A stretch of 64,000 nt of DNA from a virus. Its lineage: Duplodnaviria; Caudoviricetes. The stretch lies in IMG/VR virus record IMGVR_UViG_3300035208_005676, positions 1 to 64,000 of that record. One strand, 5' to 3'. Of the stretch, positions 58,458 to 64,000 are shown in pieces. Within the stretch, counting starts at the first letter, position 1. Each line of letters begins with the position of its first letter. Position numbers and translations under genes: made by a program. The notes under the pieces are model-generated. The model was given only the letters and a program-made list of their open reading frames with translations, ran no database searches and was not told where the DNA came from.

Positions 58458-58706
58458 GTGCGGCTGATCGTCCAGGTGGAGCAGGGCGCGGGGGAAGACC
58501 GCAATTCCCCCGAGGCTCTGGCCGCGCTGGAGAAGGCGCTACACCAGACCGCGGCCAGCCTGCTCGGAGCATCGCTGGACCCACCCGCCGAAGGGAAGCT
58601 CCCGACGCAAGCCGCGCGGAACCTCCAGGCCCGGATCGAAGCGTACTACCAGGAGCAGCTGCTCCCGCACATGATCGAACAGATTTTGGAGGTATTGCCG
58701 CAATGA
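58458..58706 (+). CDS. hypothetical protein
   Basis: operon-packed ORF. Confidence 0.6.
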   Translation: MRLIVQVEQGAGEDRNSPEALAALEKALHQTAASLLGASLDPPAEGKLPTQAARNLQARIEAYYQEQLLPHMIEQILEVLPQ

Positions 58707-59026
58707 GTACCCCGATTGCCCCGACCGAGCCCTACTTCTCGTCCATCGGCGGGCGGAAGATGCTGGTCCTGCTGATCGCCGTGGCCTTCGCCGTGGCCGT
58801 CATCGCGGTCGCGCTGTTCCGGGCGGTGCCCACGGAGACCCTGGGGGAGGTCTTCCGCTTCCTGGAGGTGGTGATCCTCGCGTACATGGGAGCGAACGCG
58901 ATCTCGGCCGGCTCGGCCGCGGTGGCGAAAGCAGTCGGGCAGAAGCCCGCGTCCACGCCCGGGGTGGAGCTGCTCTCGCTGAAGGTGTCCGACTCCGAGG
59001 ATCTGCCCGAGAAGTCTGGCGAATGA
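58703..59026 (+). CDS. holin-like 2-TM protein
   Basis: GGRKML + two hydrophobic helices + AYMGAN. Confidence 0.55.
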   Translation: MSTPIAPTEPYFSSIGGRKMLVLLIAVAFAVAVIAVALFRAVPTETLGEVFRFLEVVILAYMGANAISAGSAAVAKAVGQKPASTPGVELLSLKVSDSEDLPEKSGE

Positions 59027-59358
59027 GCCGACGGACCCGGTGGATCCTGCTCGGGGTGGCCTGCATCTTGGCAGGTTTCTTTCTGGGCCTGGCGATCTTC
59101 GGGCGCGGGGAGTGGGGCTTTCTGGGGGTGCTCGCGGGCTTTTTCGGGCTGGCCGTCAAGCCTGAGCCGGAGATCCCCGAGGTAGAACAGCGGGTGGCGA
59201 CGGCCAAGCGGGAAGTGGCTGTAGCGCAGGAGCGGGCGAAGGAAGCGGCCCGCGAGGTGAGCGTGGATGTTGCGGAAGCTGCTACTGGTCGGGATCGCCC
59301 TCGTACTGCTCGCAGGGTGCTCGACTACCTCCGGAGCGCGAACCGCGCCGGGAAGTAG
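59023..59358 (+). CDS. membrane protein with coiled coil (i-spanin-like)
   Basis: N-terminal TM hairpin, helical C-terminus, overlaps the lipoprotein gene. Confidence 0.45.
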   Translation: MSRRTRWILLGVACILAGFFLGLAIFGRGEWGFLGVLAGFFGLAVKPEPEIPEVEQRVATAKREVAVAQERAKEAAREVSVDVAEAATGRDRPRTARRVLDYLRSANRAGK

Positions 59359-59737
59359 TTTTGCCACCGCGGCGGGCTGCTCCGAGACGTTGACCCCTGT
59401 TGCTCTGCCAGTCGTGGCCGACGAAGATCTCCGCGTCGAGCCAATGGAGGGGGTGATCTCCCCCGACCCGGCTGCCTGGACAACCCCCTTTCACGGCCAG
59501 CTTCTTTCCGATGCAGCTCTGGCGCTTTTGGAGGCGAAAGCCCGGGGCGGAGAGCTGCGCGAAGACGAGGCAGAGCGGCTGCGGGGGGTCGCCTGTCGGC
59601 TGCTCGGAGAAGTAGAGCGAGATCTGGTGCGACAACGGGCCGAGCTGGGGACGGCTCGGCGTAGTCTGGGGATGTTGGCGGCGGGGTCGGCTGGGGCGGT
59701 GCTCCTGCTTGCGATCCTCGCGGTTGCTGGGAGGTAG
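59267..59737 (+). CDS. lipoprotein with C-terminal TM (spanin-like)
   Basis: LLAG|C lipobox; C-terminal hydrophobic helix. Confidence 0.55.
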   Translation: MLRKLLLVGIALVLLAGCSTTSGARTAPGSSFATAAGCSETLTPVALPVVADEDLRVEPMEGVISPDPAAWTTPFHGQLLSDAALALLEAKARGGELREDEAERLRGVACRLLGEVERDLVRQRAELGTARRSLGMLAAGSAGAVLLLAILAVAGR

Positions 59738-59741
59738 CGGC

Positions 59742-60218
59742 ATGGGATGGATCGAAGCACACTGGCCCCTTTTCGTGGTCGCGGCCTCGCTGGCCATTCC
59801 TCTGATTCTGGCGGGGATGATGCTCGTCCGCGTGACCGGGCACGGCAACGCGACGAGCACCGGCCGGCAGAGCATCGGGGAGCAGCACATTGCCCTGCAG
59901 AACGGACGGCAGGAATGCCCGCCGGTGGTCTACACCACGATGGGCAGCCTGGCAGCGGCTGTTCAAGAGCTGCAGCGGCAGGTGGCCGAGGGCTTCCGTG
60001 AGGTGCGGGTTGACCAGAAAGAGACGCGGATGCAGCAGGCGCAGATCGCGGCCGATCTTCGGGTGGCCTCCGAGGGCTTCCGGGTGGCCGCCGAGGGCTT
60101 CCACGCGTTCTCCCGGCTGATGGAGCGATTCGACATCGAGGAAGAGACGATCCGCGTGCTCGACCGGGAGGCAGACGCGCTCGGCCGGGCGGGTGAGCGG
60201 GAGAGGGCGCACGGGTGA
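59742..60218 (+). CDS. membrane-anchored coiled-coil protein
   Basis: GGGAGG RBS; N-terminal TM. Confidence 0.6.
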   Translation: MGWIEAHWPLFVVAASLAIPLILAGMMLVRVTGHGNATSTGRQSIGEQHIALQNGRQECPPVVYTTMGSLAAAVQELQRQVAEGFREVRVDQKETRMQQAQIAADLRVASEGFRVAAEGFHAFSRLMERFDIEEETIRVLDREADALGRAGERERAHG

Positions 60219-61984
60219 TCCCGATCCGCCCGAATCGGGAGCAGCTGCGGCGGCACGTCGAGCGAGCTTCAATTACCCCCGAGGTGGCCAAGGCGATCCG
60301 GGAGATCGTCCAGCTGCACCATGAAGCTCTTGTCGAGGCGGTCTGCGGCGGGAGCATGCTCCCCGAGGCCGTGACGGCTCAGATCCGGGCTGCAGGGATC
60401 CCGCGCTGGGCCGGTCCTTCTGTCGTCGAGTCGGGGGTCGACCTGGGGATCCTCACCGCGGGCCTAAAAGACCCCTTCCAGGACGAAGTTGACCCTGACG
60501 AGCTGGCCCGGCGGATCCTGCACCAGCGGGAGTTGCCGCTGTCCTACGCAGAGGCCGTGGCTGAGCAGGAGGCCAAAGAGAAAGCGGCCATTTACTGCCG
60601 CGGCCTCGGAAACACCGTCGACAAGGAGACGCAATCGTTGATCGTCGAGACGACGGTCGAGAACCGCGCGCAGCTGGTTGACGCGATCCGCGACGAGACG
60701 GCCGAAGCAATCCACTGGCGCGAAACGCGTTTCGCAATGAAGAGTCGGCTCGGTCGGGCAACTGGCGAGTGGCACCGGGATCTGCACCGGATCGCCGAGA
60801 CGGAGCTGCACAATGCGATGCAGGCCGGGCGCGGGGCGGCAATCGAGCGCGACCACGGGGAGGGCGCGCAGGTAGCGAAGCGACCCAATCCGTCTGCCTG
60901 TCCTGCGTGTTTGAGCATGTACCTGGATGGTGACGGCAACCCGCGGATCTTCCGGCTGTCAGAGATCAAGAGCGCGAGCAACGCCCGGGATCCCCAGACG
61001 GGCAAGCCGCGAAAGCGCGCGGACTGGGTTCCCGCCTTGGAGGCGCTACACCCCCACTGTTTCCTGCCCGGGGCAGTTGTCCAGGGCCGGATTCAGCTGG
61101 CGACCCGGGCGCTGTACCACGGGGAAGCCGTTGAAATACTTACTGCTCGTGGGCACAAGCTCACCGTCACGCCGAATCACCCCGTACCGACCGCGGACGG
61201 CCGCTGGCTCCCGGCGGGAAAGGTCGCGCAGGGCGATGATCTGCTCTGCTACCTTGGCGGGCAGGAAGGGGATGGTGCGGCCCGAGTCGCGCCTCGTCCG
61301 GACCCCCGGCACGAACAGCAGAACCCAGCCCGTATCGAGGAGGTATTTGACGCGTTTGCGAAAGGCGGTCGGTGTGCGCGATTGCATGCCTCCCCGATGG
61401 ACTTCCACGGCGATGCGATCGGCCTGGAGGGCGACGTCGATGTTGTATGGCCCGCAAGCGTGCTGTTGCGAGACGGCCTCTCCCCGGTCACGGAGTGCGG
61501 TAGCGATCTCGTCTTCCCCGAAGCCGACGTTGCGGCCGTAGCCGGTGGTCTGTCGCTCAGTTGCGCGGCGGGCTCGCAGCTCGGGAGACTCGGTTTGTCC
61601 TCGGCGGCTGGCCCAGGCGCTACCGAGCTGGCGCTCGACAGCAGTCCGATCCATGCGCAGGTGCTCCCACTTGATGTACTCCTGCTCGGACTGGCTTCGG
61701 AGCTGGACACCTGCGTCGAGGAGTTTGGCCTGCAGGGTGTTCCTTGCGACGCCGGCTTCGCCGGCAAGCTGCTTGATCGATTCCCCGGAGCGGTAGCGGC
61801 GGACAAAGTCGTTCAGGTTCGGAAGTTCAATTTTTCTGGTCATGTGTACGATCTCCAGTCGGAAACTGGATGGATCGTAGCAGACGGGGTTGTAACAAGC
61901 AACTGCCGCTGCCAGCTGATCTACGTTCCCGAGGGCTGGGGCTTCGACGAAGACGGCCGGCTGGTTCCCCCGAGGCGCAGGTGA
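60215..61984 (+). CDS. MuF/SPP1 gp7-like head morphogenesis protein with intein
   Basis: RIAETELHNA, ACPAC, and HPH|intein|CRC reconstituting the HPxCRC motif. Confidence 0.88.
   Translation: MIPIRPNREQLRRHVERASITPEVAKAIREIVQLHHEALVEAVCGGSMLPEAVTAQIRAAGIPRWAGPSVVESGVDLGILTAGLKDPFQDEVDPDELARRILHQRELPLSYAEAVAEQEAKEKAAIYCRGLGNTVDKETQSLIVETTVENRAQLVDAIRDETAEAIHWRETRFAMKSRLGRATGEWHRDLHRIAETELHNAMQAGRGAAIERDHGEGAQVAKRPNPSACPACLSMYLDGDGNPRIFRLSEIKSASNARDPQTGKPRKRADWVPALEALHPHCFLPGAVVQGRIQLATRALYHGEAVEILTARGHKLTVTPNHPVPTADGRWLPAGKVAQGDDLLCYLGGQEGDGAARVAPRPDPRHEQQNPARIEEVFDAFAKGGRCARLHASPMDFHGDAIGLEGDVDVVWPASVLLRDGLSPVTECGSDLVFPEADVAAVAGGLSLSCAAGSQLGRLGLSSAAGPGATELALDSSPIHAQVLPLDVLLLGLASELDTCVEEFGLQGVPCDAGFAGKLLDRFPGAVAADKVVQVRKFNFSGHVYDLQSETGWIVADGVVTSNCRCQLIYVPEGWGFDEDGRLVPPRRR
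60720..60735. repeat. 16-bp palindrome copy 9
   Basis: exact match. Confidence 0.95.
61046..61843 (-). CDS. antisense HTH + Vsr/DUF559-like endonuclease nested in the intein
   Basis: GGAGA SD before ATG; YRSGESIKQLAGEAGVARNTL (HTH); E.EI...QHACGPYNIDVA....IAVEVH...R..YL...GWVLLFV. Confidence 0.8.
   Translation of the reverse strand: MTRKIELPNLNDFVRRYRSGESIKQLAGEAGVARNTLQAKLLDAGVQLRSQSEQEYIKWEHLRMDRTAVERQLGSAWASRRGQTESPELRARRATERQTTGYGRNVGFGEDEIATALRDRGEAVSQQHACGPYNIDVALQADRIAVEVHRGGMQSRTPTAFRKRVKYLLDTGWVLLFVPGVRTRRDSGRTIPFLPAKVAEQIIALRDLSRREPAAVRGRYGVIRRDGELVPTSSKYFNGFPVVQRPGRQLNPALDNCPGQETVGV
61058..61903 (+). mobile_element. 282-aa intein (Hint) with no recognisable sense-strand endonuclease
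   Basis: CFLPGAVV (block A), LTVTPNHP (block B), GHVYDLQS (block F), VVTSN|C (block G). Confidence 0.9.
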
Positions 61985-62184
61985 GCCCGCCGCGCGTCTG
62001 CTGTCCGGGCTGCGGCCGGAAGGTTGCGCAGGAGGACAGCGATGGAGGCGGCTGGCTGGCCCGTACATCGGTTCTGAAGGTCGGGCCGGGCGGGGAGGTC
62101 AAGATCCGCTGTCGCCACTGTGGCGGCCTGGTAGCCCTGCCCTTGACCGAACGTCGGACCCCTCCGCTCATGGTGCGGCGCTAG
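61981..62184 (+). CDS. small zinc-ribbon protein
   Basis: CPGC...IRCRHC; GTGA-coupled. Confidence 0.65.
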   Translation: MSPPRVCCPGCGRKVAQEDSDGGGWLARTSVLKVGPGGEVKIRCRHCGGLVALPLTERRTPPLMVRR

Positions 62185-62207
62185 AGTTATCGTATGCTCT
62201 ACTACTC

Positions 62208-62402
62208 GTCGCGGATCCTCCGCGCAGGTGCAGCTTCGCTGCGCTCATGCCGCGGGTTTCGGCCCCCGCGTCGGCGTTTCGACTTTCCCCCGCTGGTTCC
62301 AGCCGCCACGGAAAAATACCCTCCGCGCAGGGGTTGTCGGCTCAGGCTGCGCGTCGCGGAAAACCACCCTCCGCGCTGGGGTTGCAGACGGTCAGGCCGG
62401 TG
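62208..62402 (-). CRISPR. trailer of four variant repeats with short spacers
   Basis: Variant repeats at about 62208-62237, 62249-62283, 62305-62340 and 62353-62388; 6-bp stem kept in all. Confidence 0.7.
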
Positions 62403-62803
62403 GTCGCGGATTCGTTCCCTCCGCGCAGGTGTTGCCGGCGGCCGCAGGTGCAGACGGCGTCCGCCAACCCCAGGGTCGCGGATTTGTTCCCTCCGCGCAG
62501 GTGTTGCCGGAGTTCGGTCCCGAGCCTGTGAGCACATTCTGATGGCGTCGCGGATTTGTTCCCTCCGCGCAGGTGTTGCCGGACGCCAGCTGATCGAGCT
62601 TGCTTATGAAGGAGAGTAGTCGCGGATTTGTTCCCTCCGCGCAGGTGTTGCCGGCACTCTCATTTTCAACCATCTCCTCTTGCTTGCGAGCCAGTCGCGG
62701 ATTTGTTCCCTCCGCGCAGGTGTTGCCGGTCGATCAGCTGGCGTGCAGCGCGCCGGTCCTTCGGGAGGTCGCGGATTTGTTCCCTCCGCGCAGGTGTTGC
62801 CGG
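62403..62803 (-). CRISPR. CRISPR array: 6 x 36-nt repeats, 5 spacers of 36-39 nt
   Basis: Repeat (minus strand) CCGGCAACACCTGCGCGGAGGGAACAAATCCGCGAC at 62403 (1 mismatch), 62475, 62547, 62619, 62694, 62768. Confidence 0.97.
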
Positions 62804-62809
62804 GGCACG

Positions 62810-64000
62810 TCACGGAATACCAGGAACGGCAAGGCTTTCTGCTTCGCTTTGCGAGCGGGTCTTTTTGAGTCGACTCCACTTCGATCCGCTTTTCTGCAAC
62901 TCCTTGGAATTATTGGCCGTCGCTTTCCCGTTCGGGGTTGCCACACCTTCCCGCTCGCTTCCATAGTGGATCAGGAGTACCCGAGCCGCGTTCTCGTCTT
63001 GATCCCAGCAGGCTCCGCACCCCGGACAGACGTGGTCGACGGACGCCGCGGCGTCCCATTTTTCAGTGTGGCCGCAGAGGTGGCATTCTTGCGTGGTATA
63101 GGCCGGATCCAGTTTGACGACGGTCTTCCCGCGCATCGTGAACGCGTTGATCAGGCAGAGTCGCAGCTCGGAAGGAGCGGCGATCCGCTGTTGAAGACGC
63201 GCTGCGGGCCTTTCCACCTCTTCGGCCTCGGGAGCGATGTGCCGCTGCATCTTGCTTAGATCGAAATCCTCCAGGATCAGCGTGTTGTACTGCTCGGCCA
63301 ACCGAGCCGCGGCGACACGGTAAACTTCCCGGCGACGGCGCAGAACCTTGTCTCGCAGGTTTTCCTGCCACTGCCAGAGGTGGTAGTCCTGTTTTTCCCA
63401 GGTGTCGAGCAGAGTAAAGCCCTCGTCATCGTCGGGAAAGCGGGCCTCTCGCCAAGCTCGAATCAGGATGACGAGGTGCCCCGTAGCTTTCCAGAGGTGG
63501 ACGTAAGCAATCCCCAGATCGGCCATCCACGCAGGAATCTTGTGGACTGAGATCCACGCGATGAGGCTCTTCTGCACCTCGTTGAAGTTCTTTTTGCGGA
63601 TGCTCTGAAGGTCACTGACCTTCTGCAACCGCTCTTGAATCGGAATGTCTACTCCGATTTCTCCCAGATCCCCGTCCGATCCGACGAAGAAGCCTCCCCG
63701 GAGCGATGCCGGCTTGCCGCGCCAGCCCAGGTCGACCGCGAGGAGCCGATTTCCGGGTACGACGATCTGTTCGGGGGTCTCTAGGGAAAGGCAGAGAGAC
63801 CAGCTCGGTTTGCCCGCCAACCGGGACACCTTGACTTTGGCCCACTTGACTCGGCTGTTCGGGGGCACCGGCCGATGCAAGGTCACCGGCCAGGTGGCCC
63901 AGATCGGCTTACCTGTTGAATCCGAGGAGACGCGCAGGTGAGCGACTGTTCGCTGTTCCGGAGAGCGGCGGCGATCCCAGGCCGACGCGGGGACGGGGTC
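62810..64000 (-). CDS. compact type V effector, Cas12m (V-U1)/TnpB-related; 5' end outside window
   Basis: Frame open to the edge; WPVTLHRPVP..VKW, AVDLGWR (RuvC-I), HLWQWQ..RDK..RRR..YR, LEDFDL (RuvC-II), CHLC..CPGC, DQDENAA (RuvC-III); abuts the array. Confidence 0.85.
   Translation of the reverse strand, partial: DPVPASAWDRRRSPEQRTVAHLRVSSDSTGKPIWATWPVTLHRPVPPNSRVKWAKVKVSRLAGKPSWSLCLSLETPEQIVVPGNRLLAVDLGWRGKPASLRGGFFVGSDGDLGEIGVDIPIQERLQKVSDLQSIRKKNFNEVQKSLIAWISVHKIPAWMADLGIAYVHLWKATGHLVILIRAWREARFPDDDEGFTLLDTWEKQDYHLWQWQENLRDKVLRRRREVYRVAAARLAEQYNTLILEDFDLSKMQRHIAPEAEEVERPAARLQQRIAAPSELRLCLINAFTMRGKTVVKLDPAYTTQECHLCGHTEKWDAAASVDHVCPGCGACWDQDENAARVLLIHYGSEREGVATPNGKATANNSKELQKSGSKWSRLKKTRSQSEAESLAVPGIP

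Follow-up and report, generated by a model that had tools for sequence, protein, structure and literature searches.

Anti-sense endonucleases of the Vsr type have been reported in the full inteins of minor capsid genes of actinobacteriophages (Gosselin, Arsenault and Gogarten, bioRxiv 10.1101/2025.01.02.630785), where the second open reading frames (ORFs) typically lie outside the splicing domain and are proposed to originate from a free-standing endonuclease that invaded an existing intein. Anti-sense or out-of-frame LAGLIDADG endonucleases in inteins, those of Synechocystis dnaX and others, date back to 1998-2002 in the literature (Gorbalenya 1998 and Gogarten 2002, as cited in later work), and the out-of-frame endonuclease of the cyanobacterial dnaX intein is treated by Phillips et al. 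(bioRxiv 10.64898/2026.09.14.751524). In the so-called fractured genes, a free-standing Vsr-like endonuclease gene is found between the two halves of split inteins (Dassa et al. 2009, PMC2677866), and for the EDxHD homing endonucleases the prototype that has been characterised is I-Bth0305I (Taylor et al. 2011, PMC3239194; PDB 3R3P). Here we describe a class-1 intein in a phage head gene whose opposite strand carries a complete nuclease gene. It lies near the end of a 64,000-nucleotide (nt) stretch, the window, which comprises positions 1 to 64,000 of the IMG/VR virus record IMGVR_UViG_3300035208_005676 (Caudoviricetes); the whole phage genome of 103,540 nt is rated complete and is present in landfill and groundwater metagenomes.

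The element in the window has the layout described by Gosselin et al., i.e., a contiguous intein ORF, a complete antisense endonuclease ORF, a Vsr-like fold and an in-frame middle without a fold. The original prediction had set this layout against canonical inteins, which carry the endonuclease in frame; the layout has already been published, and the window copy is a further example whose value is confirmatory. What is added beyond the preprint is of degree: a wider range of hosts and GC content, the family being found here also in phages of Pseudomonas, Cronobacter, Vibrio, Idiomarinaceae and Haemophilus/Aggregatibacter and in contigs down to 41% GC; an ORF that overlaps both splicing lobes, with start signals drawn from block F and its last fold elements opposite block B; stop-avoidance statistics; and one clear signature of co-conversion. 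With the LAGLIDADG antisense inteins the element shares an endonuclease encoded as a separate ORF overlapping the intein and a proposed origin by secondary invasion of a mini-intein, but the nuclease is Vsr-like rather than LAGLIDADG and the host genes and organisms are others. Fractured genes also bring a Vsr-like endonuclease together with an intein, mainly in phages, and have it made as a separate protein with its own expression signals; their host gene, however, is divided into two ORFs and depends on trans-splicing, whereas here a single ORF of 589 amino acids (aa) continues through the antisense of the nuclease. A Vsr-like catalytic domain is common to I-Bth0305I and the window protein, in which the composite EDxHD residues are only partly identifiable. 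I-Bth0305I resides in a group I intron and carries NUMOD repeats, whereas the window protein resides in an intein and carries helix-turn-helix (HTH) modules of the Hin/resolvase type.

An intein and a nuclease gene on opposite strands

The plus strand holds an ORF at 60215-61984 that is stop-free from end to end and encodes a 589-aa precursor of a head-morphogenesis (MuF-like) protein. It is interrupted at HPH|CRC (the bar marks the insertion point) by a 282-aa intein (61058-61903, ORF residues 282-563), and the predicted spliced product has 307 aa. The intein starts with Cys1 (61058) within CFLPG, has T38-P-N-H41 as its block B, and closes with block F (GHVYDL) and a final VVTSN before CRC, such that the features of a class-1 intein, namely an N-terminal Cys, TxxH, block F and a terminal Asn followed by Cys at +1, are all present. 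The penultimate residue of block G is Ser (TSN) and not His, as it is in 10 of 11 loci, with HN in locus L009 only. Inteins without a penultimate His can still splice, and we regard the Ser as a variant feature that does not exclude membership. Intein-free homologues of the host protein (P0158-P0164, 300-316 aa, 48-61% identity) run uninterrupted through the site as LHPH|CSC, LHPW|CRC, LHPF|CAC and AHPN|CQC, which confirms the predicted junction and, together with the sequence itself, the original placing of the intein and its splicing blocks.

Structure prediction of the sense intein gave a HINT fold built from its two termini. The N-terminal splicing lobe with blocks A and B (residues 1-69, 61058-61264; block B at 61163-61183) is confident over residues 1-68, with a pLDDT score (predicted local distance difference test) of 82-95, and the C-terminal lobe with blocks F and G (61808-61903) has a pLDDT of 82-97. 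Residues C1, Y20, G22, G32, V37, T38 and H41 of the N-lobe are invariant in six relatives, as are V263, Y264, D265 and N282 of the C-lobe among relatives. The middle of the intein had been judged to read like filler, and no recognisable fold was obtained for it: residues 137-203 (61466-61666) are translated and predicted to be disordered, with a pLDDT of 22-38. Unlike this remaining filler, residues 81-136 (61298-61465, plus strand), which are the exact mirror of the catalytic core of the nuclease, reach a pLDDT of 52-89, with a helix at 93-103 and strands at 105-110 and 123-131. In this prediction, the higher values may be a shadow of nuclease covariation in a small alignment, or the sense product may be partly folded.

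The nuclease gene occupies 61046-61843 on the minus strand and encodes 265 aa plus a stop, with its ATG at 61843 and its stop codon at 61048-61046, ending 12 nt ahead of the first codon of the intein. It is the only copy in the whole 103.5-kb genome. The ATG is the reverse complement of the block-F His262 codon CAT (61841-61843), and a Shine-Dalgarno-like GGAGA located 8 nt before it (61852-61856, minus strand) is the reverse complement of the Asp-Leu-Gln codons of block F. The two frames are codon-aligned, with nuclease residue r opposite intein residue 263-r, and the sense DFHGDA is simply the reverse complement of the antisense RIAVEV, so that the sense HGD mirrors the nuclease AVE. The ORF with its start signals, stop, codon alignment and DFHGDA mirror can all be read in the sequence as they had been reported. 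These start signals recur in the family: 10 of 11 loci have their nuclease start opposite the His codon of block F (CAT giving ATG, CAC giving GTG in L007), and a purine-rich GGAG, GGAA or CGAG, from the reverse complement of Asp-Leu-Gln/Glu, is found at the GGAGA position in 10 of 11, the locus of the Gordonia phage Fosterous (L004) having CAAGG at this position. Read from stop to stop, the minus frame reaches a further upstream ATG at 62068 (340 aa). A gene starting there was rejected, as the 75 residues it would add lie opposite the C-extein and intergenic DNA and are unsupported by relatives; homology favours ATG 61843 as the start.

As modelled (mean pLDDT 77), the nuclease consists of an N-terminal DNA-binding HTH domain resembling that of Hin recombinase (residues 2-49, 61697-61840) and a Vsr-like nuclease domain (residues 104-233, 61145-61534, both on the minus strand). 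In fold searches, residues 104-233 matched E. coli Vsr (1CW0; score 10.3 over 115 residues, root-mean-square deviation 2.5), residues 107-211 the catalytic domain of I-Bth0305I (3R3P; 9.5, 93 of 97 residues), residues 105-211 the DUF559-type protein 3HRL (9.4, 89 residues), and residues 2-49 the DNA-binding domain of Hin recombinase (6.6, 45 of 47 residues). A phmmer search of the single nuclease sequence against PDB sequences returned nothing; the matches came only from fold searches and from the sequence profile of the family, which hits 3HRL at E 2.8e-4. Pfam PF18741 is touched by 9 of 11 family members, below its cut-off. Taken together, these matches bear out the first assignment of an HTH and a Vsr/DUF559-like core. 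The motifs G131-x-Y-N-x-D136 and A145-V-E147 lie at 61403-61453; G131, Y133, N134, D136, A145, V146 and E147 are invariant in the family, E110 is nearly so, and all are intact in the window copy. Some members have the His after AVE at another position or lack it, and D, N and G all occur at the Asp of LLDxGW.

In the nuclease relatives, which range from 218 to 446 aa, one to about five tandem HTH modules precede the common Vsr-like core (e.g., L010:1788-3107 and L008:108-1268), and the host intein grows with the number of modules from 244 to 486 aa. The modules are of the Hin/resolvase type according to both Pfam and the fold search, with no NUMOD family at E<=1. The DNA-binding part of the nuclease is therefore modular and expandable, though it necessarily stays open on both strands.

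The Vsr-like fold extends to about residue 233, and therefore its last helix and strand (residues 195-233) sit opposite the block-B region, i.e., intein residues 30-68 (61145-61261, both strands). Within this segment YGVIRRD of the nuclease is the mirror of VTPNHPV of the intein, and the middle codon positions are the least variable. The structural models thus suggest that two folded domains are encoded at once over about 40 codons. Beyond it, the C-terminal tail of the nuclease ORF (residues 234-265, 61046-61144, minus strand) is antisense to the N-terminus of the intein and the last four extein codons; its length varies among relatives, the position of the stop differing, and residues 256-265 have a pLDDT below 50.

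Recurrence and selection on the two frames

We searched for relatives of the nuclease by tblastn with the 265-aa product and obtained 42 phage records with 28-36% identity, mostly over at least 80% of its length, from phages of Pseudomonas, Gordonia, Rhodococcus, Mycobacterium, Cronobacter, Vibrio, Idiomarinaceae and Haemophilus/Aggregatibacter. Six records were opened (Pseudomonas, Cronobacter, Vibrio and three Gordonia), and in all six the match is antisense to one long head-protein coding sequence, which is annotated as head-morphogenesis, MuF-like or unnamed and adjoins the portal gene. The nuclease is unannotated in these records, the head gene being the only feature annotated there. A profile search of 1.84 billion cluster representatives yielded 11,161 proteins at E<=1e-3, of which 1,433 were at E<=1e-30. 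On eight metagenome contigs (GC 41-69%), the nuclease is again codon-aligned antisense within a head-protein intein with both frames open, without exception. Most of these contigs measure 0.9-3.4 kb, and it is chiefly on those with a truncated head gene that gene callers pick up the nuclease. The C-terminal junction reads ...N|C(R/K)C wherever it is present on the contig (12 of 14 loci). All 14 loci have the nuclease gene in the equivalent intein at the equivalent host site; none of the copies sampled is free-standing.

A codon-aligned antisense frame stays open only if the opposite strand never uses TTA, CTA or TCA. We counted these codons in the overlap at five loci and used the frequencies of Leu and Ser codons in neighbouring genes to estimate how probable their absence is. 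There were none on either strand at any of the five. For the window alone, the probability of an open frame is about 0.08 for the antisense frame and about 0.05 for the converse, i.e., not beyond chance at this GC content, and the reality of the minus-strand ORF, which is undecidable from the window alone, is settled by the comparative evidence. At L010 (GC 41.5%), P was 8e-10 for the nuclease strand and 1e-11 for the sense strand; at L003, from a Vibrio phage (GC 46%), 2e-7 and 4e-10; and at L002, from a Cronobacter phage (GC about 51-53%), 3e-4 and 6e-6. That stop-mirroring codons are absent at such probabilities in relatives of low GC content indicates that, in the family, selection maintains an open frame on each strand.

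The two frames are not, however, conserved alike. Over the interior, defined as nuclease residues 13-190, most pairs have an amino-acid identity of 0.41-0.54 for the nuclease protein as against 0.22-0.36 for the sense translation, though in the closest pair, the window and L005, the two are almost equal (0.66 versus 0.64). Substitutions in the interior are commonest at the third codon positions of the nuclease, which are the first positions of the sense frame. The ratio of non-synonymous to synonymous substitution (omega), calculated by the Nei-Gojobori method, has values of 0.27-0.52 in the nuclease frame versus 0.68-0.96 in the sense frame; such estimates are crude on overlapping frames but agree in direction. 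The nuclease frame is thus under purifying selection inside the intein, and the sense frame drifts there and need only remain free of stops. Comparison of homologous inteins, which had been suggested as a check on the antisense gene, therefore came out in its favour, with an open antisense frame, constraint on its protein and the recurrent start signals described above.

Over the first 29 residues of the intein this pattern is reversed, with omega of 0.07-0.22 in the sense frame and about 1 in the nuclease frame, from which it follows that the last 30 or so codons of the nuclease are read-through. In the N-extein, the window and L005 differ at 10/3/54 sites in codon positions 1/2/3, the ordinary pattern of a sense gene. 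The claim that about 790 nt are constrained on both strands was consequently overstated: two folded domains oppose each other over about 40 codons only, the sense omega is near 1 in most of the interior, and the last 30 or so nuclease codons are unselected. In this family, nature offers a clean example of two proteins whose codons face each other on opposite strands, with one strand selected for its protein sequence and the other mostly to stay open.

Mobility and the state of this copy

Besides the intein-free homologues described above, two lines of evidence bear on the mobility of the element. L010 and L011, which come from different samples, share about 1,500 nt of intein without a mismatch, together with about 100 nt and about 60 nt of flanking sequence, whereas their exteins beyond the shared flanks differ by 10-30%. 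As judged from these sequences, this is the pattern that would be expected of homing with co-conversion. Among Pseudomonas aeruginosa phages, the intein is found in 14 records (the vB_Pae_CF/BR series), and about 25 others, including phi297, JBD44, JBD88b and Fyn8, have exteins that are 95-97% identical and lack exactly the insert. The junction, read from translated proteins, is GNSIN|CKCSQVEV in phi297 and GNSIN|CYLPG...IIASN|CKCSQVEV in the intein-bearing allele. Such cultured pairs, one phage carrying the intein and the other lacking it, could readily serve to study homing by an antisense-encoded enzyme.

The original prediction held that intein and antisense endonuclease form one selfish unit, and the predicted folds, the size and context of the family, the selection on the nuclease frame and the signs of mobility all speak for it. 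We therefore consider it probable that the window carries a composite selfish element, a class-1 intein with a complete antisense nuclease gene, at the conserved HPx|CxC of the head gene. Under this model, which supposes that the antisense gene is transcribed and translated, that its product cleaves a DNA target and that the intein is active in splicing, the two terminal lobes would form the splicing (HINT) domain, which would excise the insert from the precursor and rejoin its flanks after translation. A free-standing nuclease, composed of the Hin-like HTH and an EDxHD-type Vsr-like domain, would be made from an antisense transcript and would cut head-gene alleles that lack the intein, close to the site of insertion, and repair from an intein-bearing copy would then bring in intein and nuclease together. 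The host reading frame would cross the nuclease gene as its antisense translation, a mostly unstructured filler kept open by the absence of TTA, CTA and TCA from both strands.

Several observations weigh against such an active element in the window, in addition to the chance openness of its frames and the crudeness of omega on overlapping frames mentioned above. The EDxHD His varies across the family. A scan for sigma-70 promoters over 60900-62400 on both strands found none, though the consensus may not suit the host of this high-GC phage, and transcription of the late sense gene would run into that of the antisense gene. When contigs of four metagenome runs were compared with 59700-62250, there was no joint that skips the intein and no empty allele of this phage; these contigs held only diverged relatives with an interior not alignable at 80% likeness, and in one of them conserved splicing blocks surround a diverged interior. 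Further, the interior differs between the window and L005 at 96 of 429 nt (22%) and the N-extein at 67 of 838 (8%), i.e., the interior has changed about three times faster, with a nearly flat distribution over codon positions (41/18/37). In this pair, the HTH has an omega of 0.79 and the linker one of about 1, against 0.33 in the nuclease core, and L005 has a 114-nt in-frame deletion (38 linker codons) at window 61527-61640. The nuclease in the lineage of the window and L005 may thus be losing function.

L005 (1037-1966; 301-1422, minus strand) also has a 5-nt gap in the N-extein, at window 60813-60817, which shifts the frame of the head gene and could be either an assembly error or a decaying allele.

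The alternative that survives best accepts the architecture as described and takes the nuclease of this copy to be a decaying relic in a fixed intein, with no empty targets left and an ORF that is open only by virtue of a GC content of 66%. The fast and flat divergence from L005, the relaxed HTH and linker and the L005 deletion would all follow, as would the diverged interior between conserved splicing blocks in the other metagenome contig, and a frame would stay open by chance at this GC content with P about 0.05-0.09. Nevertheless, the nuclease core still has an omega of 0.33 in the same pair, all residues that are invariant in the family and the ATG and GGAGA signals are intact, and rapid evolution of the HTH could equally reflect the tracking of target sites, so that we regard a relic as unlikely, while giving it more weight than any other alternative.

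An improbable variant is a functional nuclease that does not serve the homing of the intein, either because the intein is merely a safe landing site or because the phage has recruited the enzyme, e.g., against competing phages. The preprint model of a free-standing endonuclease invading an existing intein would fit such an independent gene, and so would its own start signals and a widely varying number of HTH modules, which suggests changing DNA targets; yet the nuclease travels together with the intein, their flanks being co-converted, all 14 loci have the gene at the equivalent intein and host site with no free-standing copy sampled, and the phage genome has a single copy. That the minus-strand ORF is a chance shadow of high-GC DNA, with an unrecognised endonuclease in the in-frame middle of the intein, is very hard to believe, since, even though antisense frames are often open at this GC content (P about 0.05-0.09) and sense residues 81-136 reach a pLDDT of 52-89, the antisense protein has a confident Vsr-like fold, an HTH and thousands of homologues, its frame is open in relatives of 41-47% GC and surpasses the sense frame in conservation, disorder is predicted for sense residues 137-203, and the sense HGD is the mirror of the nuclease AVE.

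The composite selfish element favoured here supports the view that inteins gain mobility enzymes through invasion by free-standing endonuclease genes. Whether the antisense layout is moreover a selected design, a general solution across phyla, rather than a frozen accident of such an invasion, is a separate matter, and we doubt that it is. If it were, the start of the nuclease would be hard-wired in block F, such that neither part could be lost without the other; the shared stretch of some 40 codons would encode two folded domains simultaneously; convergent transcription would make expression of the nuclease and of the late head gene mutually exclusive, with the cut timed to early co-infection; and sense residues 81-136 might fold as part of the intein.

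The host gene and its surroundings

The host gene had been called MuF, and this name stands only as far as shared motifs go. Phage_Mu_F (PF04233), as a hidden Markov model (HMM), matched neither the whole protein at E<=1 nor the N-extein at E<=10, and the 'head morphogenesis' family phrog_2468 reached only E 0.22 against the window host protein; a match to phrog_15127 falls on the intein and not on the extein. With the family of intein-free homologues as the hhalign query and the MuF protein of phage phi297 as the target, RIAETE and HPH|CRC align in register, though weakly (hhalign E 0.026, probability 1.9%; BLASTP E 0.031). We therefore name the gene MuF-like from these motifs and the common insertion site.

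The genes just upstream of the head gene (59709-60218 on the plus strand, and 58703-59737) encode small proteins with hydrophobic stretches and not a portal as in the relatives, and therefore the gene order at this head gene is atypical. Directly after the head gene, at 62200-62900, there is a run of direct repeats that resembles an array of clustered regularly interspaced short palindromic repeats (CRISPR). Past the repeat run, a TnpB/Cas12-like ORF on the minus strand (62810-64000) continues beyond the end of the window.

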